A DNA stretch of 45,410 nt from an uncultured Oscillospiraceae bacterium (GCA_964634065.1 CAZWID010000001.1:1-45410); one strand, 5' to 3'. Shown: positions 8,239 through 38,226, counted from the stretch's first letter. Notes: generated from the letters alone by a model not told the origin. Numbers and translations are program-made.

Positions 8239-8267
8239 ATTATACCACCTAAGCTTCGGCTTTTCAA
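8239..8267 (-). promoter_or_regulatory. sigma-A type promoter upstream of smc
   Basis: The minus strand reads TTGAAA (8267..8262), a 17-nt spacer, then TGgTATAAT (extended -10, hexamer 8244..8239). It lies about 50 nt upstream of the smc ATG. Confidence 0.55.
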
Positions 8268-8269
8268 GA

Positions 8270-8301
8270 AAAATACGAAAAACGGAGCGTTTTGCTCCGT
8301 T
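8270..8301 (-). terminator. rho-independent terminator after the radical-SAM gene
   Basis: 8-bp stem AACGGAGC/GCTCCGTT (8281..8288 and 8294..8301) with a 5-nt loop, starting right after the stop codon. On the minus strand it is followed by TTTCGTATTT. Confidence 0.6.
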
Positions 8302-9974: not shown

Positions 9975-9977
9975 TTT

Positions 9978-12300: not shown

Positions 12301-12303
12301 AGC

Positions 12304-14484: not shown

Positions 14485-14493
14485 TTTATGTCC

Positions 14494-15699
14494 TCACTTT
14501 ATTTTCAATGTAAACCTTTTTCCCGCTTCCTGCTCCACATAGCCCATAAGTTGAAGCAGTGTCAGGTCGGACAGGACCTTTGCGGCAGACAGCTCCGTTA
14601 TCTCAATGAGCTCATCCACCTGCATCGACGGCTTGTTCATCGCGGAAGCTATCTTTTGCTGAGTATCGGTCAGCCCTTGAAGCTGTTTCATGGAGTCAAT
14701 ATAGACTTCGCTTTCTTCATTGTCAACCTCTTTTTTTGAAACTTTTTCGGTCTCGGGCTTCTTTTTCCGCTCTTTGTTGGGACGATATTCAAGCTTTTCC
14801 GGTGAATACAATTCATTGCTCCTGTGCACTCTGTTCGGAAAAAGCGATGCATATTCGCACATCACGTCCCACCCTTCCGTAACGGGCTTGGCTCCCTCTT
14901 TGAGTATGGCATTGGAGCCTATACAATTATACTCACCGGCATTGCCGGGTACGACAAAAAGCTCCTTGCCCTGATCGGCGGCTTCGTTTGCAAACAGTCG
15001 CGCTCCGCTCTTTTGCGGTGCTTCGACGACGACAACACCCATCGACAGTCCCGCACTTATGCGATTTCTTGCGCGGAAGTAACTGGAATAAACGGGTGTT
15101 CCGGGCGGGTACTCACTTATAAGTGCACCGTACCACATGACGTCGGCGGAAAGCTCCGTCTTTGCCTGCTCATGCGGAACACCGAGTACGCCTATGACCG
15201 TACCGTCACCGTACAGTGCGCCCTTTGCAGCCATAGCGTCGATGCCTGCCGTGAGTCCCGATACAACGACACCGCCGCATTTTGCTATCTCATAGCCGAG
15301 CTTCTTTGCCATTTTCAGTCCGTGAGGCGAAGCTTTTCTCGTACCGACTATCGCGATCGCAGCCTCGTCATCGATCGGCGGAAGCTTGCCTTTGACGTAC
15401 AGTATATTCGGCGGCAAACTGATATTCTTCAGTCTGTCGGGATAATCGGCATCCTGCACCGTAAGTATTCTGATATGTTGCTCCTCGCATTCATCGAGTA
15501 TGCGTAAAGCGGAATCGAGATCTCTCTTTTCAAGTGCGTCGATACCGTCGTCGTAACGTCCGACAAGCGACTTGATCTCACCTTTAGGTGCAAAAAACAT
15601 CGCCTCCGGACTGCCGTAATGCTCAATAAGTGCGGCAGTGACTCTCGGGCTCAGACCCGGTGACTGTGATATCCACAGCCAATATTTCAGTGCAGACAT
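14494..15699 (-). CDS. dprA: DNA processing protein DprA (Smf)
   Basis: 401 aa. DprA core AIVGTRKASPHGL, GLTAGIDAMAAKGAL and VVVVEAPQKSGA, with a C-terminal winged-helix-like extension. Confidence 0.88.
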   Translation of the reverse strand: MSALKYWLWISQSPGLSPRVTAALIEHYGSPEAMFFAPKGEIKSLVGRYDDGIDALEKRDLDSALRILDECEEQHIRILTVQDADYPDRLKNISLPPNILYVKGKLPPIDDEAAIAIVGTRKASPHGLKMAKKLGYEIAKCGGVVVSGLTAGIDAMAAKGALYGDGTVIGVLGVPHEQAKTELSADVMWYGALISEYPPGTPVYSSYFRARNRISAGLSMGVVVVEAPQKSGARLFANEAADQGKELFVVPGNAGEYNCIGSNAILKEGAKPVTEGWDVMCEYASLFPNRVHRSNELYSPEKLEYRPNKERKKKPETEKVSKKEVDNEESEVYIDSMKQLQGLTDTQQKIASAMNKPSMQVDELIEITELSAAKVLSDLTLLQLMGYVEQEAGKRFTLKIK

Positions 15700-15715
15700 T
15701 GCTCCGCTCCTTCGC

Positions 15716-16465
15716 TCACTTTGTCATTTCCCACATCGACACCGCTGCAGCAACCGCCGCATTGAGCGATTCGGAGCACGGCATCATCGGTATTATCAGC
15801 TCACCGTCGCACATTGAAAGCAGCTCGGAGCTGAGACCCCTGCCTTCACTGCCTATCGCGACGGCTGCATTTTTAAGTTCAATCTGCCGTATGTCCCGTG
15901 CGGTATCGGTGAGTGCCGCGCCGTAAAGCAAAAGCTTTGATGCTTTGCAGAGCCTAAGGAGTTCTTCGCGATCGGTGCTTATTACTCTTTGGCGAAATAT
16001 CGCACCCATCGTCGCACGCACGGTCTTGGGATTATAGAGATCTGCGCAGTCACCGACGAGGATGACGGCATCGATACCGAAGGCATTCGCCGTTCTTATC
16101 ACCGTACCTACATTGCCCGGGTCTTGAAGATTTTCAAGCACAACGGCATTGCGGAGAAAGCCGTCGGACATAGCCTTCATTTCGACTGTAAACAGCGGTC
16201 CGGGGCAATTCTTGAGCGGCGAAGCGTAGTCAAAGAGATCGCTCGGTGCAGCGTATATCGCGCAGTCATCGGGAACCCGAGGCAGTGTCTCCGGCTCGTC
16301 CTTAAAAAGCAGCGTCTTGACCGTCATACCGGCACAGAGTGCCTCTTTGAGCGTTTTTTGCCCGTCACAGACAAATTCGCGGCATTCATCGCGATATGCG
16401 GCATCGGCGGAAAGCTTTTTGAAGTGGCATATTATTCTGTTTTTCCTCGAAGTAATCTTTTCCAT
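15716..16465 (-). CDS. TrmH/SpoU family RNA 2'-O-methyltransferase
   Basis: 249 aa. SpoU motifs LENLQDPGNVGTVIRTANAFG, AVAIGSEGRGLS and IPMMPCSESLNAAVAAAV. Confidence 0.88.
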   Translation of the reverse strand: MEKITSRKNRIICHFKKLSADAAYRDECREFVCDGQKTLKEALCAGMTVKTLLFKDEPETLPRVPDDCAIYAAPSDLFDYASPLKNCPGPLFTVEMKAMSDGFLRNAVVLENLQDPGNVGTVIRTANAFGIDAVILVGDCADLYNPKTVRATMGAIFRQRVISTDREELLRLCKASKLLLYGAALTDTARDIRQIELKNAAVAIGSEGRGLSSELLSMCDGELIIPMMPCSESLNAAVAAAVSMWEMTK

Positions 16466-16474
16466 GGTGATAAT

Positions 16475-16502
16475 AATATAACACTCCGACGCGATTTGTC
16501 AA
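16475..16502 (-). promoter_or_regulatory. sigma-A type promoter placed so that the TrmH-family gene would be (near-)leaderless
   Basis: The minus strand reads TTGACA (16502..16497), a 16-nt spacer, then TGtTATATT (hexamer 16480..16475). Only 9 nt (ATTATCACC) separate it from ATG 16465, with no SD between. Confidence 0.5.
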
Positions 16503-16530
16503 ACCTTCCTACATATTTAATATATGTGAT

Positions 16531-16560
16531 TTAAAATTCCCACTGCCGTTTGACAGTGGG
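16531..16560 (-). terminator. hairpin terminator after small ORF A
   Basis: Perfect 7-bp stem CCCACTG/CAGTGGG (16539..16545 and 16554..16560) with an 8-nt loop. On the minus strand it is followed by AATTTTAAAT. Lies 29 nt after the stop of the 85-aa ORF. Confidence 0.45.
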
Positions 16561-16588
16561 AATTTCGTTTTGCTTTGAAAATGCAGCT

Positions 16589-16846
16589 TTAGGAGTTAAA
16601 GAGCATTTCGTTTGTCGAGGGTACCTGATAGCAGTAGAGGCTGCCGTCGGCACCGGGGGAAGTATTGCAACCTATCGCGGTGTCGAGGAACAGGAAGTCG
16701 CCGCCGCCGGCATCGACCTTGCAGGTCGTGTACGATACGGCATAGATCGTGTCCTGATACAGCTTGTTGCCGCAGTTTCCCGCTATCGAGCTGCTCAGCT
16801 CATACTCCTCGAAATACAAGGCGGGCTTTTCATAGCTTCTTTTCAT
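16589..16846 (-). CDS. 85-aa four-Cys protein, copy A (uncharacterised; translationally coupled to giant protein A)
   Basis: The ATG shares one base with the upstream TAA (TAATG at 16848..16844). SD GGAGGTG is formed by the last codons of the upstream gene. The paralog at 22987..23244 differs at 13 synonymous codons and only 1 amino acid (S63H). Confidence 0.85.
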   Translation of the reverse strand: MKRSYEKPALYFEEYELSSSIAGNCGNKLYQDTIYAVSYTTCKVDAGGGDFLFLDTAIGCNTSPGADGSLYCYQVPSTNEMLFNS

Positions 16847-18129
16847 TACTTGCCACCTCCGATTGTTCCTTCGACGAGTTTTCCTATCGTTATCGATGCA
16901 TCTATCGCCTTTTCCGTCGCCGCTATCTTTATGCTTCCTGCGGGTGCGGATTTCAGCACGTCTTCCGGCTCCGTCGGTTCAACGTAGGTGTAGCCCTCTC
17001 CTGCGGGGATACTCGACAGCTGCGCCGCCGCGTAACCGCACAGCTCCGTATCCGCTATGAGACTTGCACTCTGTGCCGTACCCTTTGCATAGGTCACCTT
17101 CACGCTTGTCACCGATACGATGCCCGTGCCGTTATTAACGATTACTATCTTGCCGTCACTTGCCGTCACCGCATAGTACATTTCGGTGCTGCTGTTTACG
17201 CCGATCGTCTTGCCGTTTACCGCTACCGATACCGCCTTGCCGTCCGCGCTCTTGAGTCCGATATGTACACCGACGACATTGCTCATATTGCTCAGCTTAA
17301 ACGCTATGCCCTGTCCCGTCGCAAGATATACTTCGTTCTTCGGTCCGTAGTTCTTGTAATCCTCCGCTACGCTCGAGGTCGTTATCTTATGGTCCACTAC
17401 CAGGTTGCCCTTAGAGTCTACCTTGTAGCTGCCGTCTGCGTTCTTCGCGGGACGTCCGTCGATATACACCGCTCCCGATACGCTGCCGTTTGCACTGTTG
17501 AAGCTGTTTGCCGAAATCAGTGCGTCTCTGACGTCGATGTACTGTGCGTTGTATTCGCCGTCCGCTGCGTAGATGTCGCCGTAGGTCTCGTTCAGCTTAT
17601 TGTTGTATACTCTGATACCGTCCAGTATGAAGCTTACGCTGCCGAGTCTTGTTCCGTCGGCTGCGGTGAGGTCAAGTGCCGTCGAGTATGCGACCTCGAT
17701 CTTCACGGTGTAGGTGCCGTAGGCAAGAGACGTTTCCTCGAATACGGGGATCTGCCAATAGCTGTCCGCCGATCTCGTCGATATCATCTGCTTCATGCCG
17801 ACCATTTTTCCCTGCGCGTCGTATACGCTGACCTTGAAGCCGCCCTGCGACGCAGTCGTTGCGGAGTAGAGCTCAAAGCCCGTTCCGGTGAAGGTGAACT
17901 GTGCGGTCGCGGTATTGCCGCCCTTGGCGACGGTGACGCTCATCGCCTTGCCGAGTGAGTAATTGGTGTACTCGCCGTAGGCTGCATCGTAGCCGTATAC
18001 GCCTTCGCCCGCCGTCTGCTTAATCGCCGCTATTGCCGCATCAGTCTTGCCGTCGTCGTACACCGCTTTCCAATCGCCGCTGTAGCTCACGAAGCTGTCC
18101 TCATAGTATACGCTCGTTGCGGGGATGAT
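16589..18129 (-). repeat. direct repeat copy A (1541 bp; 3' end of giant gene A plus small ORF A)
   Basis: Collinear with 22987..24527 at a constant offset of 6398 bp. Sub-blocks: 16589..16615 identical; 16616..16676 has 17 differences; 16677..17985 has no difference found; 17986..18129 has 5 silent SNPs (17986, 18010, 18022, 18043, 18088). Confidence 0.9.
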
Positions 18130-21100
18130 CTTCACATTGGAGTACATATACTTGCCCGCTGCGGTGACCGCGTAGTATACGGTATCGGCATCGCTTGCGA
18201 TTGCGTTGGGCTTATAGGTAATCTCCTGTCCGCTTGCACTTGCGACACCGGACTTGAGGGTTACGCTGTTCATGCTGAGGTTGCTGTCGGACTTGAGCTC
18301 GGTCTTGCTGATGCCGGAGATGGGGTATCCGACATTGACGGATACGGGGAGACCGTAGTCAATGATGACATTCTTCTGCTCTGCGGGCTTTACATTGTAG
18401 GTATTGACCGCATTGACCGTCGTGATACCGCCGGAGAGCGTACCGGAAAGTCCGGTGCTGCCCTTGTAGGACAGTGTGTAGTATTCCTTCGGGGTCTCGG
18501 TTATGGTGTAGGTGGAGTTTTGCGCAAGCTGCTCAATGACTACACGGTAGCCGTCCTTGAAGGTGCCGAGCTGAGCGGAGCTGAGGGTCACGGTCTGATT
18601 TGCCGAAGTGATGTTGACGACGCCGTTTTTGACCTTGTTATTTGCCGCATCGTAAACGGTGTAGTACACTTCGTCGAAGTCGCGGCTTGCTATCTTGAGC
18701 GTGATGTTGAATGCGAAGGTGTCGCCGGTGGGTGCGGTGAAGGCGGAGCCTGCCGCAGTGACTACATTCTTCTTGAGGATGAGAGTGGTCGTTCCGGTGT
18801 TCCAAACCGCGGAGAAGTGGATATCCTCATTGAGGGTAAGTCCGGTGATGTATTTGCTCGAATCGTCGGGATCGACAAACTGACCCTTTGCGGAATCGTA
18901 CTTGTAGAACTTACCGTCGCTGCCCTGATAGCCGACGAAGGTCACGGTCTGACCGTAGGCGTCGACGACACTGATGTTGGAGGGATATGCGGGGATGCCG
19001 GATACGAACTGACCCTGCTTTGCGTTGCCGCCGTCGGGCATAGTGCCGGTTATGACATATTCATCTCTGTTCAGACCGACGTCATAGGAATAGCTGACCG
19101 TGGTCTTGGACTTGAGGTAGCAGTCGATGTGCCAACCGACGCCGGTACCGTGCTGAATCTTTACGACATAGGGAATGAGCTCGTAGTTATCGGCTTCGGA
19201 AGCCGCGATGCCCTTATCGGCAAGGAACAGAGTCTTGACGAGATCCCAGTCGGCGTCGCTCATGTCGATATAGTCTCTGGGATAGTACTGAACACCGTTG
19301 ACGGTGGAGAGCGAAACGCCCCATGTACCGCCGTCATTATTGGACTTCATGAATGCTTCGGAGTCGAAAATACTGCTCTTTATGAAGGATGCGCCGTTTT
19401 CCATGAAGATATCGCCGCCGGTGACCTTATAGTTCACGCCGCCGATGGTCAGATTGGGAGTTGCGCCGTTGGTGTTCTTGGTTATGTAACGCCAACCGTA
19501 GTTCACTGCTATGCACGGCTCTGTGGGGTATGCGCCGTCTATATTTGCAATGCAGGTGAGGTAAACGGGATACGTGGTGTTATTGAGAACGCCGTTGTCT
19601 TTGTTATCGTAGCTCCACTGTGCATAGAGGGTGGTGGGACCATCGAGGCGCAACGTTCCCGTATTTGCACCATGTTTTATTTCACCCGTAACGTTCTCCA
19701 TCCAACCGATAATATCGGAATTATCGTGGTTTACTCCTGTTGCGCCTGTACCGCCCTTCTTCGCCTCGTTGTAGAAAACTGTGTTGGAAACAACGGTTCC
19801 GCCATCAGCACGAACGACAGCAGTTAAAATATAGCAATTCTTATGATCATTTATACCGTCCTCATGGAAGAAATCGTTTGAACAAAAGGTTACTTCATAA
19901 CCCCAAATCGCATAAAGAGTAATATCTGAGGTCGGTGTGAAAGTTGTTCCTGCGGAATAAACGTCATCACCATCCGGAGATGTGCTCCAACCCATAAACA
20001 CTGCTGAGGTTCCGGGACCGGTAAATGCGTTTGCACTCAGAGTAATACCGCTTCCCTTGGCAACAGTCTGCGCTGCCATACTTCCGGTGCCGCCATTGGC
20101 GTTGTAGGTAACGGTGTATGCAGGAGTTACGGTTATAGTTGAGTTGTCACGCAGACAGTAAAGCTCCCCTGTAGCTTTATCTTTCCAATAATAGTAGCAA
20201 GTTATTACCGCTGTTCCTTCGGAGTTGCAAGTAACATTGCCGCTATTGTCAACGCTTGCAACTTCGGGGTTACTTGATACCCAACGATAGTCCGTACTTT
20301 CATCATAGCGATAGTTGTTGCGCGGTGTTGCTGTGAGTTTTATTGTACTCATTCCCGCAATCCCGCTATCTTTTTTAGGAGAAACAGTCATACCAACATT
20401 TATTGTTGACTTGCTATAAAGTGTGAGGAGCCTATCTGCCGATGAATCTCCATCATCGGACTGTTGCTTTGACCAAGCTCCGGAAGTAGTAACATGGACT
20501 CTTTTTATACTTGTTGTTATACCTTTGTATGCTATTATCAAGCTGTAAGTACTGTCACCTGCATATGTCCTGTCAAAAGTGAACCATGCTTTCGACGTTC
20601 CACTGGTATTGACACTACTCTGCGCTTGAAGTCGCGTATCATTTGTTAGATTAAATCTGTCAGCATGATACCACGCAAGATAACTTTGACCATTATTATT
20701 TGTCCAAGTGTAGTCTTCCTCGCTTCCGTTAAGTTTCCATTTAATGGACGCCAATTTGCTATCAGCTACTCTCAAATAAGGAGCACTGTTATCCGGCGCA
20801 ACATTAACTGTAACTTCCGTGCTACCTATATCATTTCCGTTGCCTTTATTGGTCATAGCATAGCGGGTTTCAGCAGCAGGGCTCGTCGGTGCTTTTCTTG
20901 TAACAATATATTCAGTGCCGTTGGAAAGTTGGCTACGAGTAACGGCTTTCCAAACGCTCATTGTTAAGTCCTGTCCGATTTCATTCATATGATTAGAATC
21001 AAGACTTGCAAGCACAGTTATGCTCTTGCTCGTTTTAAGCTCATAATTTTTGCCGCCATCAGTCCATGTAAATGTACAGATAATATTTGCTGTACCTTCT

Positions 21101-22029
21101 CCTTGAGTAGTAACATAACCGTTGGTGGGATTTACCGTAGCAACAGCCGTATTGTCGGATGACCATGTAATGGTTTGATTAGAACCATAGGTGTATCCGG
21201 TATAATTTGTTGGTACAGTAGTGGCATAAGTCGAGTGTGTCGTCAGATTACCAAGGTTATCATTCAGAACAGCCTTATACTGAATCTTGTCTCCACTGAT
21301 AACTTGATTATTGCCCGATATTTCAATAGAAAGTTTTAGATCCTGCTTCTCGAACAAATAAGTATTTGTTGCTTTGTTTTCCAGACTTCCGCCTTTACTT
21401 ATAGCAGTCCAATATCCTTCATCTTTATAGTAAGACAAAATCTTATCGTTAGTATTGGCTCCATATACGAGTTTTGTTTCTCCGGTATTCGTATTGACAA
21501 CCTGTACATCCTTAAAGGTATACCAACCGCTGAGTGAACCGTCATTTTTGGGTTTGGAGGTAACGCCGCTGATACGGTACTTGTCTTTTACGCCGCTTAT
21601 CGCACCGGTATAGTGCCATGCAAGATAACGGTTGTTAGCCTGATTGCGCCAATACCAACCTCTGTCGGCACTAAGCGACCAAAGCTCGTTAGAGCTGACA
21701 TTACTATTTATATAGTAGGGCATACCTACCGTACCCTTAGAGATAGACTGCTCCCTGTATCCGGGGTCACTGCCGTTAAGATTCAAAATGCGCACGGTAT
21801 TATTGTCTTTAGGTGAGCTTATAATGTAAGTTCTCCCGGCACTTTGTATATATGCCGGTGCCCAGACGTTCGAGATAGTAACCGACTGTCCCGAAACGGT
21901 GGTCGCCGTCGTATCGTTGGAAGTGACTGCCGCGGCTGCCTCATAGCTCGTTATGGGTATCATCGAGAAAAGCGAAAATACCATGAGCAGACAAAGCAGC
22001 ATCGACAGTGCCCGTTTCACATTTGTCAT
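16846..22029 (-). CDS. giant secreted multidomain protein A (1727 aa; Big_2-like Ig domains, Listeria-Bacteroides/Flg_new repeat, C-terminal beta-sandwich module shared with protein B)
   Basis: Start moved to ATG 22029 (SD GGGAGGAG 7 nt upstream), giving signal peptide MTNVKRALSMLLCLLMVFSLFSMIPITSYEAAAA. Big_2-like ITWSSDNTAVATVNPTNGYVTTQGEGTANI and RWVSSNPEVASVDNSGNVTCNSEGTAVI. No LPXTG, SLH or dockerin seen. Confidence 0.9.
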   Translation of the reverse strand: MTNVKRALSMLLCLLMVFSLFSMIPITSYEAAAAVTSNDTTATTVSGQSVTISNVWAPAYIQSAGRTYIISSPKDNNTVRILNLNGSDPGYREQSISKGTVGMPYYINSNVSSNELWSLSADRGWYWRNQANNRYLAWHYTGAISGVKDKYRISGVTSKPKNDGSLSGWYTFKDVQVVNTNTGETKLVYGANTNDKILSYYKDEGYWTAISKGGSLENKATNTYLFEKQDLKLSIEISGNNQVISGDKIQYKAVLNDNLGNLTTHSTYATTVPTNYTGYTYGSNQTITWSSDNTAVATVNPTNGYVTTQGEGTANIICTFTWTDGGKNYELKTSKSITVLASLDSNHMNEIGQDLTMSVWKAVTRSQLSNGTEYIVTRKAPTSPAAETRYAMTNKGNGNDIGSTEVTVNVAPDNSAPYLRVADSKLASIKWKLNGSEEDYTWTNNNGQSYLAWYHADRFNLTNDTRLQAQSSVNTSGTSKAWFTFDRTYAGDSTYSLIIAYKGITTSIKRVHVTTSGAWSKQQSDDGDSSADRLLTLYSKSTINVGMTVSPKKDSGIAGMSTIKLTATPRNNYRYDESTDYRWVSSNPEVASVDNSGNVTCNSEGTAVITCYYYWKDKATGELYCLRDNSTITVTPAYTVTYNANGGTGSMAAQTVAKGSGITLSANAFTGPGTSAVFMGWSTSPDGDDVYSAGTTFTPTSDITLYAIWGYEVTFCSNDFFHEDGINDHKNCYILTAVVRADGGTVVSNTVFYNEAKKGGTGATGVNHDNSDIIGWMENVTGEIKHGANTGTLRLDGPTTLYAQWSYDNKDNGVLNNTTYPVYLTCIANIDGAYPTEPCIAVNYGWRYITKNTNGATPNLTIGGVNYKVTGGDIFMENGASFIKSSIFDSEAFMKSNNDGGTWGVSLSTVNGVQYYPRDYIDMSDADWDLVKTLFLADKGIAASEADNYELIPYVVKIQHGTGVGWHIDCYLKSKTTVSYSYDVGLNRDEYVITGTMPDGGNAKQGQFVSGIPAYPSNISVVDAYGQTVTFVGYQGSDGKFYKYDSAKGQFVDPDDSSKYITGLTLNEDIHFSAVWNTGTTTLILKKNVVTAAGSAFTAPTGDTFAFNITLKIASRDFDEVYYTVYDAANNKVKNGVVNITSANQTVTLSSAQLGTFKDGYRVVIEQLAQNSTYTITETPKEYYTLSYKGSTGLSGTLSGGITTVNAVNTYNVKPAEQKNVIIDYGLPVSVNVGYPISGISKTELKSDSNLSMNSVTLKSGVASASGQEITYKPNAIASDADTVYYAVTAAGKYMYSNVKIIPATSVYYEDSFVSYSGDWKAVYDDGKTDAAIAAIKQTAGEGVYGYDAAYGEYTNYSLGKAMSVTVAKGGNTATAQFTFTGTGFELYSATTASQGGFKVSVYDAQGKMVGMKQMISTRSADSYWQIPVFEETSLAYGTYTVKIEVAYSTALDLTAADGTRLGSVSFILDGIRVYNNKLNETYGDIYAADGEYNAQYIDVRDALISANSFNSANGSVSGAVYIDGRPAKNADGSYKVDSKGNLVVDHKITTSSVAEDYKNYGPKNEVYLATGQGIAFKLSNMSNVVGVHIGLKSADGKAVSVAVNGKTIGVNSSTEMYYAVTASDGKIVIVNNGTGIVSVTSVKVTYAKGTAQSASLIADTELCGYAAAQLSSIPAGEGYTYVEPTEPEDVLKSAPAGSIKIAATEKAIDASITIGKLVEGTIGGGK
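19900..20122 (-). other. Listeria-Bacteroides repeat (Flg_new-like) domain within protein A
   Basis: YTVTYNANGGTGSMAAQTVAKGSGITLSANAFTGPGTSAVFMGWSTSPDGDDVYSAGTTFTPTSDITLYAIWG matches the Y.V.Y.ANGG...F.GW.....Y.......LYA.W pattern. Coordinates are approximate. Confidence 0.7.
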
Positions 22030-22632
22030 AAGTAAACTCCTCCCCATGTGTTTTGCGTTTGCCGATTTCGATTTTATCGTTTTTGTTCTGCGAAATGCGG
22101 CGGATTTTGCGGTTTTCTTCTGATAGGCATAAAGTTTAAAATCCACGTATTTCCACTCACAGAGCAAAAGATTCGGCATTTCTGCCGCAAGTGTAAATAC
22201 GATTCCAACCTATCATCTTATTTAACATTTATAATATATCAGTGTCACCATTAAATTACAAGTAAACAAATTGGCATTTTTTATCTACGTTTTGGCATTT
22301 TGACGATTTACATAATACTTTTTATGGCGGAATTATGGGGTGTTTTGTGCACTTTTTTCGACTTTTCTTCTTGCCTTTTATTTACAAAACAGGGGGGGTG
22401 GTCTGTTGGTGAACATTTTGAGTCGGTTTGTCGGTTTGATGTTCAATAATTGTGAAGAAATTTTTGTTAAAAATAACGAAAGTATTTTTTAGTTGATTTT
22501 CAGCTTGACGAAGCAGTGAGATGCTTTTTTGGGCTCACCGCAAAGGGTGCGCTGTCGGCGTCTTGTCGACAACCGATAGGACATTTAGTCCGCGCTCTGC
22601 CGTTCTGATTAACACTTTTGCAGATTCAAGTA

Positions 22633-22670
22633 CGTCGCAGGCGGCGGACTCATGAGTCCGCCCTACGACG
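22633..22670. repeat. REP-like palindrome 1 (20-nt perfect palindrome GGCGGACTCATGAGTCCGCC with outer CGTCG/CGACG arms)
   Basis: The perfect palindrome is at 22643..22662. It is the first member of an about 80-nt imperfect direct repeat (22642..22720 vs 22838..22918). Confidence 0.8.
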
Positions 22671-22757
22671 GTGCCGACAGTTTTAATTACTGCTGTGCGG
22701 TGATTAACAACGAAAAATCGACCGACGGTGATTAAAACTACTGCCATTGCATTGTAG

Positions 22758-22777
22758 GGAAGGGTCATGACCCTTCC
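22758..22777. repeat. REP-like palindrome 2 (GGAAGGGTCATGACCCTTCC)
   Basis: Perfect 20-nt palindrome with the same TCATGA centre as the other two. Confidence 0.8.
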
Positions 22778-22837
22778 GCCCGTAGCACACTTAGTTTTAA
22801 GAAAGTATTAAAAAAGAAGAACGCAGTGCAGGTTCAG

Positions 22838-22918
22838 CGGCGGACTCATGAGTCCGTCCTACGACAGTGCCGACAATATAAATAATTGCGCTGCGATAAT
22901 TTGGAGCGGAAAAATTCG
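22838..22918. repeat. REP-like element 3 (second copy of the about 80-nt unit; palindrome CGGACTCATGAGTCCG at 22841..22856)
   Basis: CGGCGGACTCATGAGTCCGtCCTACGACaGTGCCGACA aligns with 22642..22679, followed by a looser AT-rich tail. Confidence 0.75.
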
Positions 22919-22986
22919 TGCATACGAAAAACGGCACAGCGGAGTACGCCATGCCGATTTCGTTTGCTTTATGCTGTTTTCGTATT

Positions 22987-23244
22987 TTAGGAGTTAAAGA
23001 GCATTTCGTTTGTTGACGGAACCTGATAGCAATATAGTGATCCGTCCGCTCCCGGGTGGGTATTGCAACCGATTGCGGTGTCGAGGAACAGGAAGTCGCC
23101 GCCGCCGGCATCGACCTTGCAGGTCGTGTACGATACGGCATAGATCGTGTCCTGATACAGCTTGTTGCCGCAGTTTCCCGCTATCGAGCTGCTCAGCTCA
23201 TACTCCTCGAAATACAAGGCGGGCTTTTCATAGCTTCTTTTCAT
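22987..23244 (-). CDS. 85-aa four-Cys protein, copy B
   Basis: Same TAATG coupling and embedded SD as copy A. The protein is identical except H63 in place of S63. Confidence 0.85.
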   Translation of the reverse strand: MKRSYEKPALYFEEYELSSSIAGNCGNKLYQDTIYAVSYTTCKVDAGGGDFLFLDTAIGCNTHPGADGSLYCYQVPSTNEMLFNS

Positions 23245-24527
23245 TACTTGCCACCTCCGATTGTTCCTTCGACGAGTTTTCCTATCGTTATCGATGCATC
23301 TATCGCCTTTTCCGTCGCCGCTATCTTTATGCTTCCTGCGGGTGCGGATTTCAGCACGTCTTCCGGCTCCGTCGGTTCAACGTAGGTGTAGCCCTCTCCT
23401 GCGGGGATACTCGACAGCTGCGCCGCCGCGTAACCGCACAGCTCCGTATCCGCTATGAGACTTGCACTCTGTGCCGTACCCTTTGCATAGGTCACCTTCA
23501 CGCTTGTCACCGATACGATGCCCGTGCCGTTATTAACGATTACTATCTTGCCGTCACTTGCCGTCACCGCATAGTACATTTCGGTGCTGCTGTTTACGCC
23601 GATCGTCTTGCCGTTTACCGCTACCGATACCGCCTTGCCGTCCGCGCTCTTGAGTCCGATATGTACACCGACGACATTGCTCATATTGCTCAGCTTAAAC
23701 GCTATGCCCTGTCCCGTCGCAAGATATACTTCGTTCTTCGGTCCGTAGTTCTTGTAATCCTCCGCTACGCTCGAGGTCGTTATCTTATGGTCCACTACCA
23801 GGTTGCCCTTAGAGTCTACCTTGTAGCTGCCGTCTGCGTTCTTCGCGGGACGTCCGTCGATATACACCGCTCCCGATACGCTGCCGTTTGCACTGTTGAA
23901 GCTGTTTGCCGAAATCAGTGCGTCTCTGACGTCGATGTACTGTGCGTTGTATTCGCCGTCCGCTGCGTAGATGTCGCCGTAGGTCTCGTTCAGCTTATTG
24001 TTGTATACTCTGATACCGTCCAGTATGAAGCTTACGCTGCCGAGTCTTGTTCCGTCGGCTGCGGTGAGGTCAAGTGCCGTCGAGTATGCGACCTCGATCT
24101 TCACGGTGTAGGTGCCGTAGGCAAGAGACGTTTCCTCGAATACGGGGATCTGCCAATAGCTGTCCGCCGATCTCGTCGATATCATCTGCTTCATGCCGAC
24201 CATTTTTCCCTGCGCGTCGTATACGCTGACCTTGAAGCCGCCCTGCGACGCAGTCGTTGCGGAGTAGAGCTCAAAGCCCGTTCCGGTGAAGGTGAACTGT
24301 GCGGTCGCGGTATTGCCGCCCTTGGCGACGGTGACGCTCATCGCCTTGCCGAGTGAGTAATTGGTGTACTCGCCGTAGGCTGCGTCGTAGCCGTATACGC
24401 CTTCGCCTGCCGTCTGCTTTATCGCCGCTATTGCCGCATCGGTCTTGCCGTCGTCGTACACCGCTTTCCAATCGCCGCTGTAGCTTACGAAGCTGTCCTC
24501 ATAGTATACGCTCGTTGCGGGGATGAT
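22987..24527 (-). repeat. direct repeat copy B (1541 bp)
   Basis: Partner of 16589..18129; see that entry. Confidence 0.9.
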
Positions 24528-27500
24528 GTTGACCTCGGCATATTTATAGCCGCTGTCGACCTTTGCGGAGTAGTATACGCTGTCCTTATCTGCAAGCAGC
24601 TTGTTTGCCGTGTAGGTCAGTTCGTCATCGTTCAGTACCGCAGTACCGTACTTGGTGTCGGCGGATTTTGCGCCCTTAAACTCATCGCTGCCGCTGATTC
24701 CGGTATTGAGCGTCGTTTTGGGTGCGCTTGCGCTTATGCCGGATGCGTTGCCGACAAGCTCTATCGTTACGGGGAGACCGAAGTCAAGCACCGTATCGCT
24801 TCCGCTGACGCCCGCCTTGACGATTACCGTCACATAGCTCTCATAGGTCTTGCCGCCGAGAGTATAGCTGAGCTTCAAGGTGACGGAGGTATCCTTGCCG
24901 TTAAACGTAAGCTTTGCCGTTCTGCTCGTTGCGTCACCGAGAGTCGCTCCGTCGGCTTCGTCGCTGACGACAGTCCATGCATAGCTTCCGCTCGCCATAT
25001 CGAGGTCTGCCGCGCCGATGCCTACGGGCTGCGCCGTGAGGCTTAGGGTATCGTTCGGGTTAATGCCGTTTATGAGCTTATAGTCGGGGTACGCCCCGGT
25101 CTCGGTGTCGACGGTGTCGCTGCCTATCTGAATGTCGACAAATGCGGTGACGGAGGTTATCACAACGGAGTCGGAGCAGTAGGTAACGCCGTCTTTGACA
25201 TATGCCGCAGTGAGTGTCGCCGTGCCGCTCTGGGAGCCGAGGGACAACGTTGCATCACTGCCGTTGCCGGAAACGGTGAATACCGAGCTGTCGGAGCTCG
25301 TCCATACCCACGCGCCGCCTGCGGGAAGTGCCGCAAGAGGTACGCTGCTGTAGGTCACGGATACGTCCTTGGTAACGTTTGCAACGAAATTGTCGATGCT
25401 GTAAGCGTCGGGGTAGTAACCGTCGATGCAAATGTCCGCACTGTAGATAATATTGGTGACGGTCGCGGTATCGCTCATGGTGTAGGTCGTGCCGTCAAGC
25501 TCCGTCCAAGTCAGCGTCATGGTGATATTCGCTGTACCGCCCTGGCCGCCGAGGACAAGGTTTCCGTCGGAATCGACCTTTGCGACCGCTTCGTTATCGC
25601 TTGTCCAACTTACGCTGCGGTTCTGACCGAAAGTATAGCCGGTAAAGGAACCGTAGCTTGCAAATGCGTTATCGGTGAGAATGTTTTCGTTTCTGCCCGT
25701 GCTCGTCATCGTCGGTGAGTTGAGCATATTGTCGGAAACGTTATAGCTGAAACTCACCGCAGTGCCCGCGGTGCCGTTATAGAAGGTCTGCTCCTTGCTC
25801 TGATCGAGGATCTTGAGGAAGGTATCGGCACTTGCAGCCGCATAAAGTGTGACGAGGTTACCGGCATCGCTGCCGTCGTGTGCATGGTCTGCGTATCGGA
25901 TACCGCGGAAGCTGTATCCGCTTACGACGTCGTCCCAGTTATTCTTGTTCGGGACATCGTAGAAGAAGCTCAAATATCTGTCGGAGTTGCCGGGGAATAC
26001 CGAGCCGTAACGAATATAGCTCTTATAGGAAGTGTTACTGTCAAGCGGAGAAATGGTATTGAAGCTGTACCAATCACTGAAGCCGCCGGAAACGCCGTTC
26101 AGTCCGACGCTCTTTCTGACACCGGTGTCGTATACATCGGGTGTATAGAGTGCAGGGAAATAATAACCGAGGTACAGGTCACTGTATTTGTAGTTCTGCC
26201 ATTTGATCTCCGACTGCGTTGCGGTGGTCTGCTGCCAGAATGCAGCCTTATAGCTGTCGGCTTCGGGAACGACCGTAACGCCGTCGGACGCCGTGGTCGA
26301 TGCTATCGCAAAATACGGTGCGCCCTGCGTACCTCTTTGCAGAGTCGTTTGAAGCAGAACAAAGTCGGCTATCGGGTTTCCGTATACCGCACCTCTCCTC
26401 GAAGAACCTATGCCGCTGCCCTCCGGACTTGAGGTCTCACTGCCGTCGGTTGCCATGAGGACTATGTTACCCTGCTGATCGCTGCTTCCCGCGGGAAGGT
26501 TCTCGTCACTGCCGAAGAAGTAATAGCTTGCGCCGTCGGTTGCCGTTGTCGCAACGTAGAGGTTCTTGACCGTTGCCTGCAAATTTGCGGCATCGCCCGT
26601 CGGTACGCTCTTGAATATGCTTATGGGAACGCTGCTTGCGACAACGTTCTGACCTGCCACCGTATAGTGAATGTGATCCGTTGTATATGCGTCGGCAAGA
26701 ACATACTGGTTCTCGTATCCGCTGCGCTGAGTGCCAAGCTGATCGCTTACGGGAATGTATCCGAAGGAGTAGCCGTCAATGGGATCGACCGTCATGTAAT
26801 CGCCGTCGATATAGTCGGTCGCATTCTCCGCAAGCCATGCATTGACTTCGAGACGGACGCTCTCCATCTTCGCTATCGTCGCTTCGTCGGTGGTGACAGT
26901 GTCTCCGCGAGTGTAGCCTATCCACGGAGTAATATCGAAGAAGTATATCTCTATTCCCTTTGCATGGGCTGCCGAAATGAGCTGCTTATAGGCATTGATT
27001 ATCTCCTGTGCACTCGGAGTACCGTCAAAATACTGTGCGAGATTGGAGCAGTTGGGGTGCACGATATCGTTGACACCGATCTTGACGAAAACCTTTTTCA
27101 CACCGGAAAGGCTCAGTGCGTCCATATCGAAGCGGTCAAGAAGCGCATCGCCCTCGAGGGGACCGTCGCCTCCGACACCGTCGGCAAGAAGCTCATTGCC
27201 CTTTATGCCCGCACCGAGAACCGCAACGTTTGTCACGTTCTCGCCTCTGAGCTTCGACTGGAGCAGCGAAGGAATGTAGTTCGTGACGGTGGAGTCACCG
27301 ATGACCATGACGCTGTATGCGCTACTGTCGGTCGTCTTGACCTCAAGGCAGTTGAGCAGCGGAGTGATATTGTAATCTCCGGTATTGGCATCCTGCTTTG
27401 TAAGCTTGCCGAGTGCGCCGTATGTCCATTCCTCATTGTCCATCTGATCGCCGCGCCAACAGTAGGATATGCTCCCCGTGAGACCTGCGTCACGGACTTC

Positions 27501-28025
27501 GCCGGAGTTGGATATGTACGAAGAAAAGACAATATATCCGCCGGAGCTGACCGCGGTTTTCATGGTGAACCAGTCCGTCCAGACATAGCCGCCCTTGGGG
27601 ATGGTAAACGAAGTACTGCCGTTGACTTTAACGCTCACGGCGGTGTTGCCGTAAATAGCCGTGGCATTACCTTCACCGGGCAGTGCCGCAGTCATCTTCT
27701 TGACATTCAGATCCTCCGCTCCGTAGTAGTTAGTGAGCTTGACTCTGAAGGTTGTTCCGCCTGCGGAAATCTGAATCCTGCTGCGGAAGGTCGAGTTTGT
27801 CGAGAAAAGACCGCTGCCGGTAAAGTATTTATCGACAAGTGCCTCTTTCGTCTGTTCGCCGTTCAGGTTCGTCATGGCAGTGTACCACGACGTTATAACG
27901 CCGGAATTTTCATAGCTCTTTGCCTCTGCCGTGCCGCCTATCGCCGTGAACGGTATGACCGTCAGCAGCGAAAGGAGCATAAGAAGGCTGAGGAAAAGCG
28001 AAAATCCCCTCTTTAATTTGCTCAT
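23244..28025 (-). CDS. giant secreted multidomain protein B (1593 aa; N-terminal SGNH/GDSL esterase, Big_2-like domains, shared C-terminal module)
   Basis: Start moved to ATG 28025 (SD GGAGGT upstream), giving signal peptide MSKLKRGFSLFLSLLMLLSLLTVIPFTAIGGTAEA. SGNH blocks VIGDS, GVND and DHIH. Big_2-like VSWTSDNEAVAKVDSDGNLVLGGQGGTANI. The last about 470 aa are identical to protein A. Confidence 0.9.
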   Translation of the reverse strand: MSKLKRGFSLFLSLLMLLSLLTVIPFTAIGGTAEAKSYENSGVITSWYTAMTNLNGEQTKEALVDKYFTGSGLFSTNSTFRSRIQISAGGTTFRVKLTNYYGAEDLNVKKMTAALPGEGNATAIYGNTAVSVKVNGSTSFTIPKGGYVWTDWFTMKTAVSSGGYIVFSSYISNSGEVRDAGLTGSISYCWRGDQMDNEEWTYGALGKLTKQDANTGDYNITPLLNCLEVKTTDSSAYSVMVIGDSTVTNYIPSLLQSKLRGENVTNVAVLGAGIKGNELLADGVGGDGPLEGDALLDRFDMDALSLSGVKKVFVKIGVNDIVHPNCSNLAQYFDGTPSAQEIINAYKQLISAAHAKGIEIYFFDITPWIGYTRGDTVTTDEATIAKMESVRLEVNAWLAENATDYIDGDYMTVDPIDGYSFGYIPVSDQLGTQRSGYENQYVLADAYTTDHIHYTVAGQNVVASSVPISIFKSVPTGDAANLQATVKNLYVATTATDGASYYFFGSDENLPAGSSDQQGNIVLMATDGSETSSPEGSGIGSSRRGAVYGNPIADFVLLQTTLQRGTQGAPYFAIASTTASDGVTVVPEADSYKAAFWQQTTATQSEIKWQNYKYSDLYLGYYFPALYTPDVYDTGVRKSVGLNGVSGGFSDWYSFNTISPLDSNTSYKSYIRYGSVFPGNSDRYLSFFYDVPNKNNWDDVVSGYSFRGIRYADHAHDGSDAGNLVTLYAAASADTFLKILDQSKEQTFYNGTAGTAVSFSYNVSDNMLNSPTMTSTGRNENILTDNAFASYGSFTGYTFGQNRSVSWTSDNEAVAKVDSDGNLVLGGQGGTANITMTLTWTELDGTTYTMSDTATVTNIIYSADICIDGYYPDAYSIDNFVANVTKDVSVTYSSVPLAALPAGGAWVWTSSDSSVFTVSGNGSDATLSLGSQSGTATLTAAYVKDGVTYCSDSVVITSVTAFVDIQIGSDTVDTETGAYPDYKLINGINPNDTLSLTAQPVGIGAADLDMASGSYAWTVVSDEADGATLGDATSRTAKLTFNGKDTSVTLKLSYTLGGKTYESYVTVIVKAGVSGSDTVLDFGLPVTIELVGNASGISASAPKTTLNTGISGSDEFKGAKSADTKYGTAVLNDDELTYTANKLLADKDSVYYSAKVDSGYKYAEVNIIPATSVYYEDSFVSYSGDWKAVYDDGKTDAAIAAIKQTAGEGVYGYDAAYGEYTNYSLGKAMSVTVAKGGNTATAQFTFTGTGFELYSATTASQGGFKVSVYDAQGKMVGMKQMISTRSADSYWQIPVFEETSLAYGTYTVKIEVAYSTALDLTAADGTRLGSVSFILDGIRVYNNKLNETYGDIYAADGEYNAQYIDVRDALISANSFNSANGSVSGAVYIDGRPAKNADGSYKVDSKGNLVVDHKITTSSVAEDYKNYGPKNEVYLATGQGIAFKLSNMSNVVGVHIGLKSADGKAVSVAVNGKTIGVNSSTEMYYAVTASDGKIVIVNNGTGIVSVTSVKVTYAKGTAQSASLIADTELCGYAAAQLSSIPAGEGYTYVEPTEPEDVLKSAPAGSIKIAATEKAIDASITIGKLVEGTIGGGK
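26660..27310 (-). other. SGNH/GDSL hydrolase catalytic domain within protein B
   Basis: Block I GDS is encoded at 27292..27300. Block III is GVNDIVHP. Block V DHIH is encoded at 26667..26678. Confidence 0.75.
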
Positions 28026-28095: not shown

Positions 28096-28124
28096 ATAAT
28101 ATCAAAAACATCTCCCTCTTTCAA
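28096..28124 (-). promoter_or_regulatory. candidate sigma-A promoter for giant gene B
   Basis: The minus strand reads TTGAAA (28124..28119), a 17-nt spacer, then TATTAT (28101..28096), about 70 nt upstream of ATG 28025. Confidence 0.4.
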
Positions 28125-28521: not shown

Positions 28522-29982
28522 TCACTTTTTCTTTCTTTGCAGCAGTTCTTTAATTACTCCGAGCAGGTAGTCGAAGCTTTCGAAGTGCAGCAGCTTTGAG
28601 CCTGCGACATAAATGCAAACACCCAAGGGCACCTGAATCAGCAGCGTCAGCCAATTTGCAAGCTTTAGGAGCTGCACACAATACACGATACCCGCCATTG
28701 TACACGACAGCAGCATCGACGGCAGCATATCGGATATCTGCTGCCTGTAAGTGTAATCAAGCAATTTGCGGTTCGGTGCGGCATTGACGGCAAAGCTGAG
28801 GAGTGCAAAGGCAAGCATACTCACTGCCATAACAAACGGACCGAACCACATTGTCGCAAAGAGTATCGCAAAGCCGATGAGCTTTTTAATTATCTCAAGC
28901 TTCAAGTACACGTCGCTTTTGCCGAGTGCCTTTATCGCATTGAGGTTTGCGGTTTGCAGCGGCAGCATCGCATAGTAAATGCTGAAAACCACAAGATAGG
29001 GCACACTCGGCAGCCATGCATCCGACAGCAGCACCGAAACGAGCGGCGTCGCACAGGCGGCAATGCCCATCATCATGGGCCACATTATATACGAGCTTAT
29101 GCGTATTGACCTGCGTGTCATCGCTTTGACGGTCGCAACATCATCCTGTGCCGATGACATCGCGGGAAAGAGTGCGGTGTCTATGGCTGTATTGATATTG
29201 CACACGACGGTATTCGGTATCATGTAGCCTCTGTTGTAAAATGCAAGGCTTTTTGCTGAATACAGCTTACCTATGACGAGTTGGCGCAGGTTGTTGTATA
29301 TTGTATTGATTATCGAGGAAACAAGCAGCTTCCAACCGAAGGTAAACAGTCCCTTGAATCGGCTGAAGGAGAAAGCGAAATCCGGTCTCCATTTCACGAC
29401 AAACCACAGTATCACCGTATTCACAAAATTCGCAAACAGATTCTGTGCTACCAATGCCCATGCACCGAAGCCGCTGTACGCCATCCATATTCCCAGTATT
29501 GCCGAACCCACCGTACCGCCGATAGATGCGTAAAAGGATTTGTTGAACAGGAGATTTTTCGCAACATACGCATCCTGTACGTTCTTGATACCGGATATGA
29601 CGAGTGAAAGACTCAGGACTCGGACAAGAGGAACAAGCTCCGGCTTAGCGTAGAAGTCGGCTATTATCGGCGCGGCGAAGAACATGATGAAGTATGTAAT
29701 GATGCCGACCGCTATATTGAAGTAGAACACCGTCGAAAAATCGAGGTTGTCCGCATTCTTTTTCTGTATAAGCGCGTTGCCCAAGCCGCTGTCGACAAAT
29801 ACGGTCATTATTTCCATAAAGACCGTGAGTATCGCAACGGTGCCGAACACGACGGGATCGAGCAAGCGTGCAAGGATTATAGAGACGACAAAGGTGACGA
29901 TCTGAGCTCCGAATCTCGCCATAAAGATCCATGTGAGTCCCGATACCACCTTAGTCCTGTTGTTTTGTGCTTTGTTGTCCAT
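28522..29982 (-). CDS. wzx: polysaccharide flippase (Wzx, MOP superfamily)
   Basis: 486 aa and strongly polytopic (about 12-14 TM helices). Wzx-like N-terminus GLTWIFMARFGAQIVTFVVSIILARLL. Confidence 0.8.
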   Translation of the reverse strand: MDNKAQNNRTKVVSGLTWIFMARFGAQIVTFVVSIILARLLDPVVFGTVAILTVFMEIMTVFVDSGLGNALIQKKNADNLDFSTVFYFNIAVGIITYFIMFFAAPIIADFYAKPELVPLVRVLSLSLVISGIKNVQDAYVAKNLLFNKSFYASIGGTVGSAILGIWMAYSGFGAWALVAQNLFANFVNTVILWFVVKWRPDFAFSFSRFKGLFTFGWKLLVSSIINTIYNNLRQLVIGKLYSAKSLAFYNRGYMIPNTVVCNINTAIDTALFPAMSSAQDDVATVKAMTRRSIRISSYIMWPMMMGIAACATPLVSVLLSDAWLPSVPYLVVFSIYYAMLPLQTANLNAIKALGKSDVYLKLEIIKKLIGFAILFATMWFGPFVMAVSMLAFALLSFAVNAAPNRKLLDYTYRQQISDMLPSMLLSCTMAGIVYCVQLLKLANWLTLLIQVPLGVCIYVAGSKLLHFESFDYLLGVIKELLQRKKK

Positions 29983-30030
29983 CAGTCACTCCGTGAGCTA
30001 TGGTATTTATCTCGACTCATATATTTGTCA

Positions 30031-30835: not shown

Positions 30836-30864
30836 GAACATTGCCTCCTTTAATCTATGTGATT

Positions 30865-32049: not shown

Positions 32050-32061
32050 ATTCTTACCTTC

Positions 32062-33309: not shown

Positions 33310-33319
33310 GGTTAGCGTT

Positions 33320-38218: not shown

Positions 38219-38226
38219 GGCTCACC

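Follow-up and report, generated by a model that had tools for sequence, protein, structure and literature searches.

A precedent for a modified small protein that becomes part of a larger exported assembly is provided by the qhp operon of quinohemoprotein amine dehydrogenase (QHNDH), in which QhpC, a small leader-bearing protein with four cysteines, is cross-linked by QhpD, freed of its leader, exported by an ATP-binding cassette (ABC) transporter and assembled with the Sec-exported large subunits encoded by the same operon (PMC7876137). Two further precedents concern the recognition and the tailoring of peptides that are ribosomally synthesized and modified after translation (RiPPs): a YxxPxL motif that occupies positions -17 to -12 in the leader is bound by a PqqD-like RiPP recognition element (RRE) protein (PMC10368454), and homologues of HPr kinase phosphorylate the C-terminal Ser of the linear lasso precursor in paeninodin-type clusters, where a nucleotidyltransferase can then glycosylate the phosphate (PMC8498205). 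Here we describe a stretch of 45,410 nucleotides from an uncultured Oscillospiraceae bacterium (GCA_964634065.1, CAZWID010000001.1:1-45410; the whole stretch is called the window below) that carries two tandem gene pairs, units A and B. Each pair consists of a gene for a large secreted protein ending in a shared C-terminal (CT) module and a directly following gene for an 85-amino-acid protein. We propose, with a probability of roughly 0.6, that the small protein acts as a RiPP-type precursor and, once mature, would be a dedicated partner of the CT module, in analogy to QhpC.

Every gene in the window lies on the minus strand. At the junction of the large and the small gene, both units carry the sequence GGAGGTGGCAAGTAATG; the TAA stop codon of the large gene overlaps the small gene's ATG by one base (TAATG), and a Shine-Dalgarno sequence (GGAGGT) is positioned 8 nt upstream of this ATG, which bears out the coupled two-gene architecture described in an earlier note on this DNA that was made from the sequence alone. 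The likely true starts of the large genes are the ATG at 22029 in unit A (ribosome-binding site GGGGAGGAG) and the ATG at 28025 in unit B (ribosome-binding site GGAGG); each is followed by a Sec-type signal sequence that constitutes the sole long hydrophobic stretch in either large protein. Since a terminator-like hairpin follows each small open reading frame (ORF) and each unit possesses a promoter-like site of its own, the units have the appearance of two bicistronic operons that are independent of each other. Past the unit A hairpin, the next gene, encoding a SpoU methylase, has a strong promoter-like site at 16502-16475, and a scan against Rfam found no RNA element within the two units.

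The domain calls made in the earlier note (SGNH esterase plus Ig-like domains in unit B, Big_2 plus Flg_new in unit A) agree with the Pfam results, which identify GDSL/SGNH and Big_2 domains in unit B and Big_2, Flg_new and additionally DUF7601 in unit A. Neither large window protein contains an LPXTG-like motif or a C-terminal hydrophobic segment, and neither matches the Pfam models for SLH, dockerin or choline-binding domains; the reported lack of these anchors, and of a transmembrane anchor, thus holds for the window proteins. A repeated domain that had been seen in unit A was not recovered, as self-comparison of the protein gave no internal repeat at E<1e-3. The N-terminal parts, which had been taken to be variable, share a weak domain, since residues 143-388 of A match residues 569-867 of B (22% identity, E 6e-13).

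The direct repeat that connects the two units starts one base beyond the stop codon of the small gene and reaches about 428 codons into the large gene, so that exactly the small gene and the last ~428 codons of the large gene have been duplicated as one block. A repeat of 1,542 nt limits the identical protein part to about 428 aa, and the last 517 aa of A and B are 88% identical; the C-terminal module is therefore shared, as had been stated, but not identical over the ~470 aa that had been given for it. Of the 22 mismatches between the copies, 17 fall into a patch of 61 nt (16616-16676, corresponding to 23014-23074) that covers codons 57-77 of the small ORF, and the 1,309 nt adjoining this patch are identical between the copies, a pattern that suggests that gene conversion keeps the repeat block homogeneous. 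Within the patch, 13 of the differing codons are synonymous and a single one leads to a replacement (S63H), the only residue at which the two small proteins differ and a hypervariable position in the family. This preponderance of synonymous changes argues for translation of the small ORF and for purifying selection on its product. The mismatch patch has the appearance of a gene-conversion mosaic or of an import from a third copy.

As had been read from the translations, each small protein of the window contains four Cys residues and an N-terminus that is not hydrophobic, and no Sec signal. A profile search of 1.84 billion cluster representatives identified 452 relatives (representatives at E<=1e-3, with clusters counted at 50% identity), nearly all of which are 75-100 aa long and aligned end to end, compared with only 17 relatives in a word-indexed search. 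Two long profile matches (P0130, P0146) were rejected as compositional, one being a repeat protein without relation to the family and the other a thrombospondin-repeat protein from a eukaryote. The family can be described by the pattern MKKxYxKPxhxFExFxLSxSIAGxC ... C ... F ... C ... CY.xP ... hFxS. Across 147 aligned members, Y5, P8 and all four Cys residues are invariant, E13, A22, F53, Y73, F83 and S85 are conserved to at least 90%, and the N-terminal 24 residues form the best-conserved part of the protein. Among the genomic and metagenomic copies in the matches listed, 189 of 199 possess a C-terminal Ser, and 162 of 199 have exactly four Cys residues.

Searches of Pfam (E<=0.01) and NCBIfam (E<=1) gave no match for the small protein, and this includes the models for QhpC and for other curated Cys-rich substrates of radical S-adenosylmethionine (SAM) enzymes (SCIFF); no source, the precomputed Pfam annotations among them, holds a family name for its relatives. 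The earlier assessment that the protein belongs to no recognized family is correct for curated families, but it overlooks the hallmarks of a RiPP-type precursor in the sequence: a YxxPxL leader, invariant Cys residues and a C-terminal Ser. Judged by analogy to described lasso leaders (PMC10368454), the leader would comprise residues 1-21 (16784-16846 in unit A, ending with ...LSSSI ahead of AGNC) and the core residues 22-85. In the window clade, the leader motif (Y5, P8, L10, EEYEL, IAGNCGNK) and the C-terminal MLFNS are invariant, from which it can be argued that the recognition partners of the peptide are still present. An AlphaFold model of the small protein shows no confident autonomous fold (predicted local distance difference test, pLDDT, 52.7), as would be anticipated if the structure of the peptide relied on cross-links or on a partner.

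The genomic distribution of the small gene was surveyed with a degenerate, back-translated N-terminal motif of the small protein, yielding at least 119 loci that originate mostly from Oscillospiraceae, Faecousia and Pseudoflavonifractor, and to some extent from Lachnospiraceae; a metagenome survey added 80 loci. Hidden Markov models (HMMs) were built for the CT module and for the proteins of the modification cassette discussed below and were applied to both of these independent sets. Among the matches listed from the genome loci with enough upstream sequence, a CT-module ORF lies directly upstream of 77 of 96 small genes, mostly at a distance of 12-22 nt, with some overlaps; in the metagenome contigs, 71 of 72 CT-module ORFs are directly followed by the small gene. 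When the small proteins in the matches listed are clustered at 60% identity, 93 of the 116 clusters have a CT partner, 15 never have one, and 8 could not be assigned. In each context that was looked up singly, the gene for a large protein with a signal peptide and varying N-terminal domains (VWA, DUF7601, Flg_new, GDSL) is followed 0-22 nt on by the small gene. The CT module is thus almost obligatorily accompanied by the small gene, and the small gene by the CT module in ~80-85% of cases. The homologs of the small protein are mostly linked to large genes of this kind, in keeping with what the earlier note had anticipated, and we consider it practically certain that the pair is real, translationally coupled and conserved in its linkage. 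The pair is not always present in a 1:1 ratio: in L062, a metagenome-assembled genome labelled Selenomonadaceae, one CT-module gene is followed by three tandem small-protein genes (5646-7282).

In most contexts, a cassette of four genes follows the pair, which the earlier note could not have recognized because the window contains no cassette. The genes encode an ScmC-type protein, a ~370-aa radical SAM/SPASM enzyme, a ~230-320-aa protein designated X300, and a PqqD-type protein; the exceptions are L006, which has no cassette, and L001, which possesses only the ScmC-like gene of the cassette. The ScmC protein (PF27840 in the precomputed annotations) contains an HPr-kinase-like P-loop (SGPSGxGKST) and a conserved His. 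For those genome loci that provide at least 3 kb of downstream sequence, again among the matches listed, the ScmC-like gene was found in 54 of 67, the radical SAM gene in 53 of 67 and the PqqD gene in 41 of 67, and the full cassette is present in 29 of the 30 metagenome loci with at least 4 kb downstream. The NCBIfam models that were matched are ScmC (TIGR04249) and HprK-related kinase B for the kinase-like protein, ScmE, GeoRSP, MftC, AlbA and StsB for the radical SAM enzyme, and lasso PqqD chaperones for the PqqD protein. All of these matches remain far below the curated cut-offs (26.3 versus 125 bits for ScmC, 17.8 versus 100 for ScmD, 83.2 versus 400 for ScmE), which points to an uncurated cassette of a known type. 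The solved structures nearest to the radical SAM enzyme are those of the peptide cross-linkers SkfB and SuiB, followed by PqqE; a search of the PDB with a profile of the ScmC-like protein led only to generic P-loops, and none was adopted as a relative. X300 carries a lipobox in 41 of 109 cases and otherwise an N-terminal membrane anchor, and can therefore be regarded as an extracytoplasmic, membrane-tethered protein.

Loci L221 and L222 contain two tandem pairs, each large gene having its own small gene, and then X300, ScmC-like, radical SAM and PqqD genes, so that one cassette can serve several tandem units. Minimal cassettes consisting of PqqD, the small gene, the ScmC-like gene and the radical SAM gene occur without a CT-module gene, for example in L054, L079, L082, L123 and L124, and some cassette loci additionally contain an NTP_transf_5 gene and an ABC exporter. 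In the family at large, the small protein is very probably the substrate of the PqqD/radical SAM/kinase-like cassette. Two side observations concern the cassette loci. A signal-peptidase-I-like S24/S26 protein of ~154 aa is encoded near the cassette in L001 (5289-5753) and in 26 other loci and is a candidate leader peptidase. Locus L011 (ERZ28636353 scaffold_116, 3623-20261) contains three tandem cassettes, with a gene for a 1,490-aa glycoside hydrolase family 2 (GH2) enzyme without a CT module between cassettes; the first and the third cassette are preceded by ORFs of 146 aa and 122 aa instead of the ~85-aa precursor. The 146-aa ORF matches the small-protein profile weakly (E 1e-4), and both ORFs may represent further precursor classes for the same set of enzymes.

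Among the described systems, the paeninodin and pseudomycoidin lasso clusters, whose members include precursor A, PqqD-like B1, the HPr-kinase homologue K and the nucleotidyltransferase N, resemble the window small ORFs in the MKKxYxKPxL N-terminus with its YxxPxL motif and in a precursor ending in Ser; they resemble the homologous loci in the stand-alone PqqD-type protein, the HPr-kinase-like P-loop protein and the occasional NTP_transf_5 protein and ABC exporter. They differ in that a radical SAM/SPASM enzyme takes the place of the lasso cyclase (the asparagine-synthetase-like C protein) and of the B2 protease, neither of which was detected in the Pfam listings of the cassette loci or in scans of the cassette proteins. 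Furthermore, the core is ~60 aa long and contains four Cys residues, compared with 15-25 aa in the lasso peptides, and a large secreted protein is encoded in coupling with the precursor. The qhp operon shares with the cassette-bearing loci a leader-bearing four-Cys protein of ~80-110 aa, a cytoplasmic radical SAM/SPASM enzyme and Sec-exported large proteins in the same operon. However, there is no detected sequence relationship, and a heme subunit, a flavoprotein forming cysteine tryptophylquinone (CTQ) and the subtilisin-like QhpE have no counterpart; the partner here is a module resembling carbohydrate-binding modules (CBMs) on adhesin-like or enzyme passengers, in Gram-positive gut Clostridia.

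The same trio of HPr-kinase-like P-loop protein, radical SAM/SPASM enzyme and PqqD-like protein characterizes SynChlorMet (ScmC/D/E/F, TIGR04248-04251) and the GeoRSP/HprK-related-kinase systems; apart from scores far under the curated cut-offs, these are distinguished by other taxa, another precursor and no defining linkage to a surface-protein module. The pathways for pyrroloquinoline quinone (PQQ) and mycofactocin (PqqA/D/E; MftA/B/C) likewise combine a small precursor, a PqqD-type chaperone and a radical SAM/SPASM enzyme, with sub-threshold matches to MftC and PqqE, but their precursors of 20-30 aa yield redox cofactors, whereas the precursor here is ~85 aa long, retains four spaced Cys residues and is not accompanied by cofactor-tailoring enzymes. 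A search of the literature on ScmC, SynChlorMet and the combination of HPr kinase, PqqD, radical SAM and surface protein found no description of the pairing, which is weak evidence of absence. The types of enzymes are hence known, and the precursor family, the CT module, X300 and the near-obligate pairing with large surface proteins appear to be undescribed.

Like the small protein, the CT module matches no characterized family in the profile searches: Pfam and NCBIfam contain no model for it, and a member-wise Pfam search gives only weak matches to CE2_N and CBM_6, which are consistent with a jelly-roll fold. In the AlphaFold model (48 homologues; pLDDT 78, predicted template modeling score, pTM, 0.78), the module consists of a small Ig-like beta domain and two jelly-roll beta-sandwiches, with the last ~40 residues being disordered. 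Conserved stretches of the module include FTFTGTG, DGIRVY and GPKNEVYL. Foldseek aligned this model, at the level of single domains, with CBM-like domains that are accessory parts of glycoside hydrolases and lyases (BT_2959, GH101 EngBF, xanthan lyase, CITase). As these are generic jelly-roll/CBM-like matches, the assignment of a specific function was rejected; a carbohydrate- or ligand-binding role of the modelled domains is plausible. The passengers of the CT module are manifold and comprise SGNH esterase, VWA, Ig-like, pilin-like, DUF7601, Flg_new and Big_2 domains.

Most of the proteins with a CT module terminate in a characteristic manner. An acidic or Pro-rich linker and a short aromatic, basic amphipathic segment conclude 92 of 131 distinct tails (~70%), for instance ...IKSLLGWLFK, ...NWFGKM or ...GIFGRWF; another four tails are sortase-like, and four, all from the window clade, end in ...GGG(V)K. 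The tails of the window proteins (...IGKLVEGTIGGGK) lack aromatic residues and end in ...GTIGGGK. A few homologues elsewhere carry SLH or sortase-like signals, and those with a sortase signal keep the small gene. X300 is found with 43 of 49 aromatic tails versus 2 of 15 other tails (Fisher p = 1.7e-7, uncorrected for phylogeny), which suggests that X300 and the aromatic tail are an anchoring pair and that the small peptide belongs to the CT module as such. The aromatic tail may represent an undescribed C-terminal docking or anchoring signal. C-terminal amphipathic-helix membrane anchors exist, such as those of the E. coli penicillin-binding proteins PBP5/6, and the linker with a short amphipathic aromatic/basic helix in most CT proteins resembles them. 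The tails of the window proteins differ from such anchors by their lack of aromatic residues, and the co-occurrence with X300 is more suggestive of docking to a protein than of insertion into lipid.

These findings can be assembled into a proposed mechanism. Each unit would be a bicistronic operon from which a Sec-exported multi-domain surface protein and an 85-aa precursor are made by coupled translation, the precursor consisting of an N-terminal leader (MKRSYEKPALYFEEYEL..SIAG), a ~60-aa core with four invariant Cys residues and an almost invariant C-terminal Ser. The PqqD-type protein would bind the leader. Since there is a SPASM-type radical SAM enzyme and neither a lasso cyclase nor a B2 protease, intramolecular cross-linking at the four Cys residues is the most likely chemistry, and the HPr-kinase-like ScmC-type protein would most likely phosphorylate the C-terminal Ser, an activity known from its homologues in paeninodin-type clusters. 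A membrane-anchored extracellular protein of ~300 aa, X300, usually accompanies the cassette, and the mature peptide might serve the CT module, which is carried on many different passenger domains, as a small subunit or as a ligand. The structure and coupling of the genes, the membership in a family, the conserved synteny and the folds and families of the genes nearby have been shown; we infer the occurrence of the modification, its chemistry, the route of export and the binding to the CT module. The earlier suggestion of a shared module with a dedicated partner is sustained insofar as the pair is conserved and tight and the C-terminal module constant; the partnership itself would be a physical one only by deduction, and we rate the association of the peptide with the CT module outside the cell as tentative, with the balance of probability somewhat against it. 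The most far-reaching version, a new surface-protein system of gut Oscillospiraceae and related Clostridia in which a cross-linked, Ser-phosphorylated peptide acts as an obligatory adaptor of the CT module and X300 docks the aromatic tail, is unlikely to be correct in all of its parts.

Several points weigh against the proposal that the small protein is the precursor of a partner of the CT module. The motif that seeded the genome survey covers ~65% of the known members, and the metagenome loci are a redundant set that was found with the CT module itself. About 15 of the 108 resolved small-protein clusters lack an upstream CT-module gene, and several of these have a minimal cassette, so that the peptide pathway can exist without a surface protein. 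The correlation between the divergence of the small protein and that of the CT module (Spearman 0.79) is confounded by shared descent and is not used as evidence for binding, and the TM-scores of the Foldseek matches are low (~0.2) because only single domains match. The small protein lacks a signal peptide, and an ABC exporter is encoded in only 7 loci. Finally, the HMMs for the ScmC-like protein, the cassette-type radical SAM enzyme, X300 and PqqD have no match anywhere in the 45-kb window, and no cassette was seen beside the pair in the closest relatives (L052, L214-L218); modification in this particular organism is consequently unproven and could have been lost. A radical SAM gene of the Radical_SAM_C type is present in the window at 8302-9303, and was set aside as a housekeeping gene and not a cassette enzyme.

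The records GCA_963625655.1 and SFFW01 belong to close relatives. The closest relatives (L052 at 78% DNA identity; L214-L218) keep the pair followed by SpoU, DprA and TopA genes, and the next-nearest ones, whose small proteins are 52-56% identical (L221, L222), contain the tandem arrays with a cassette described above. The window units hence look like a tandem array that has been separated from its cassette, which in this lineage is presumably encoded elsewhere in the genome; maturases located away from their precursors are common in RiPP systems. Against this background one could assume that the 85-aa protein remains unmodified in the window lineage and functions as an intracellular chaperone, as a secretion-coupling factor or as a mini-protein stabilized by metal or disulfides, a view that comes near to the export-chaperone pairs named in the earlier note. 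In addition to the missing cassette, such a role would fit the nearest outgroup, L001, which within ~5.7 kb downstream keeps only the ScmC-like gene and an S26-like peptidase, and the GGG(V)K tail that replaces the aromatic one in the window clade. Yet the invariant leader motif and MLFNS terminus of this clade are hard to explain without recognition partners, distant maturases are nothing unusual, and the structure prediction offers no autonomous fold on which an unmodified protein could rely. We therefore consider an unmodified protein quite improbable and, for the organism from which the window originates, lean slightly toward a small protein that is still modified.

It is also conceivable that the product is a free-standing secreted RiPP, a bacteriocin or a signal, for which the large protein would be a mere operon neighbor serving as expression host, receptor or immunity-like binder. 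The minimal cassettes without a CT-module gene speak for this, all of the cassette enzymes belong to classic RiPP machinery, and the ABC exporter and NTP_transf_5 genes at some loci recall paeninodin- and pseudomycoidin-type clusters. A mere neighbor, however, would hardly be followed directly by the small gene in 71 of 72 instances, nor would one expect a separate small gene for each tandem large gene, a duplicated block in the window that comprises precisely the CT module and the small gene, or the persistence of the pair in lineages without an adjacent cassette; a core of ~60 aa is, moreover, large for a diffusible RiPP. This reading is accordingly less probable than that of a precursor dedicated to the CT module, and we regard it as unlikely. 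The effector/immunity or enzyme/inhibitor pairs of which the arrangement had reminded the earlier note, with a small protein that neutralizes the large secreted one, have in their favor only that the small gene is tightly coupled past a gene for a large secreted protein. Since the passengers change completely and the small protein stays the same, these analogies do not fit; in contrast to polymorphic toxin/immunity systems, the polarity is reversed, with a variable N-terminus and a constant C-terminus. The constant part, a beta-sandwich module, does not look catalytic, and the small protein has a RiPP-type leader and is linked to maturases, all of which renders this explanation very improbable.

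The coordinates of the features of the two units are collected in Table 1.

Table 1. Features of units A and B in the 45,410-nt window
Feature	Position	Strand	Remarks
Unit A large gene	16846..22029	-	ORF open to 22179; 1,727 aa from ATG 22029
Unit A large protein			Layout: signal peptide, unknown domains, Big_2, Flg_new, DUF7601, CT module
Unit A CT module	16849..18372	-	
Unit A small gene	16589..16846	-	85 aa
Terminator-like hairpin past unit A small ORF	16534..16565	-	
Promoter-like site 5' of unit A	22233..22261	-	TTGTAA-17-TATATT with TG; consensus match only
Unit B large gene	23244..28025	-	ORF open to TTG 28055; 1,593 aa from ATG 28025
Unit B large protein			Layout: Sec-type signal peptide, SGNH/GDSL esterase, Ig-like domains, CT module
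Unit B predicted signal peptide	27921..28025	-	MSKLKRGFSLFLSLLMLLSLLTVIPFTAIGGTAEA; read from translation
Unit B GDSL/SGNH esterase domain	26634..27299	-	Pfam PF00657 8e-08, PF13472 7e-08
Unit B CT module	23247..24797	-	Ig-like domain, two jelly-roll beta-sandwiches, disordered tail ending GTIGGGK (fold as modelled)
Unit B small gene	22987..23244	-	85 aa; YEKPAL leader, 4 Cys, C-terminal Ser
Terminator-like hairpin and T-run past unit B small ORF	22932..22956	-	31 nt past the ORF
Promoter-like site 5' of unit B	28096..28124	-	TTGAAA-17-TATTAT with TG; consensus match only
Direct repeat, 1,542 nt	copy 1 16588..18129, copy 2 22986-24527		98.6% identical

The 800-nt spacer between the two units contains two elements of 77 nt that are 79% identical (22641-22717 and 22837-22913), each starting with the palindrome GCGGCGGACTCATGAGTCCGCC, and a third, GC-rich hairpin between them near 22760-22790; these may be repeats of the repetitive extragenic palindromic (REP)-like or the terminator-like kind. 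Housekeeping genes are found downstream of the pairs, encoding the SpoU methylase, DprA, TopA, a TrmFO-like protein, PlsX and RNase III. Directly upstream of unit B, positions 28522-42241 are occupied by a polysaccharide-biosynthesis cluster with genes for a flippase, several GT4 and GT sugar-binding transferases, a UDP-glucose dehydrogenase, a Wzy-like polymerase and a PglD-like acetyltransferase, and a LytR-CpsA-Psr (LCP) gene lies 14 kb downstream (946-2172); in L008 and L014, too, the system is flanked by LCP, Wzz and CpsB genes. The CBM-like CT module may be connected with a cell-wall glycan, although the proximity of these genes could equally be without meaning. Further along the window, a gene for a HaeII-type restriction endonuclease (PF09554, E 1e-145) overlaps that of a C-5 cytosine DNA methylase at 43066-45094 and forms with it a type II restriction-modification pair, located in a stretch of low GC content (~0.39). 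The segment 45253-45329 on the minus strand is a full-length match to the Rfam Gut-1 RNA (RF01706; 66.5 bits, E 3e-11), which fits an origin from gut Clostridia.

Three families without existing models are defined by this analysis, the small precursor, the CT module and X300, and cultured carriers of the system exist, such as Pseudoflavonifractor capillosus ATCC 29799 (L065) and P. intestinihominis CLA-AP-H29 (L090). If the proposed role of the small protein is correct, an unannotated peptide family that is common in human and animal gut Clostridia would be a partner of surface proteins, be it structural or functional, and not a class of bacteriocins, and the principle embodied by QhpC would extend from a single periplasmic enzyme to modular Gram-positive adhesins and enzymes. 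RiPP chemistry would in that case be used to build or anchor cell-surface proteins instead of producing a diffusible natural product, and the system would offer an entry point to the way in which these gut organisms, abundant but little investigated, present large surface proteins devoid of known anchors.

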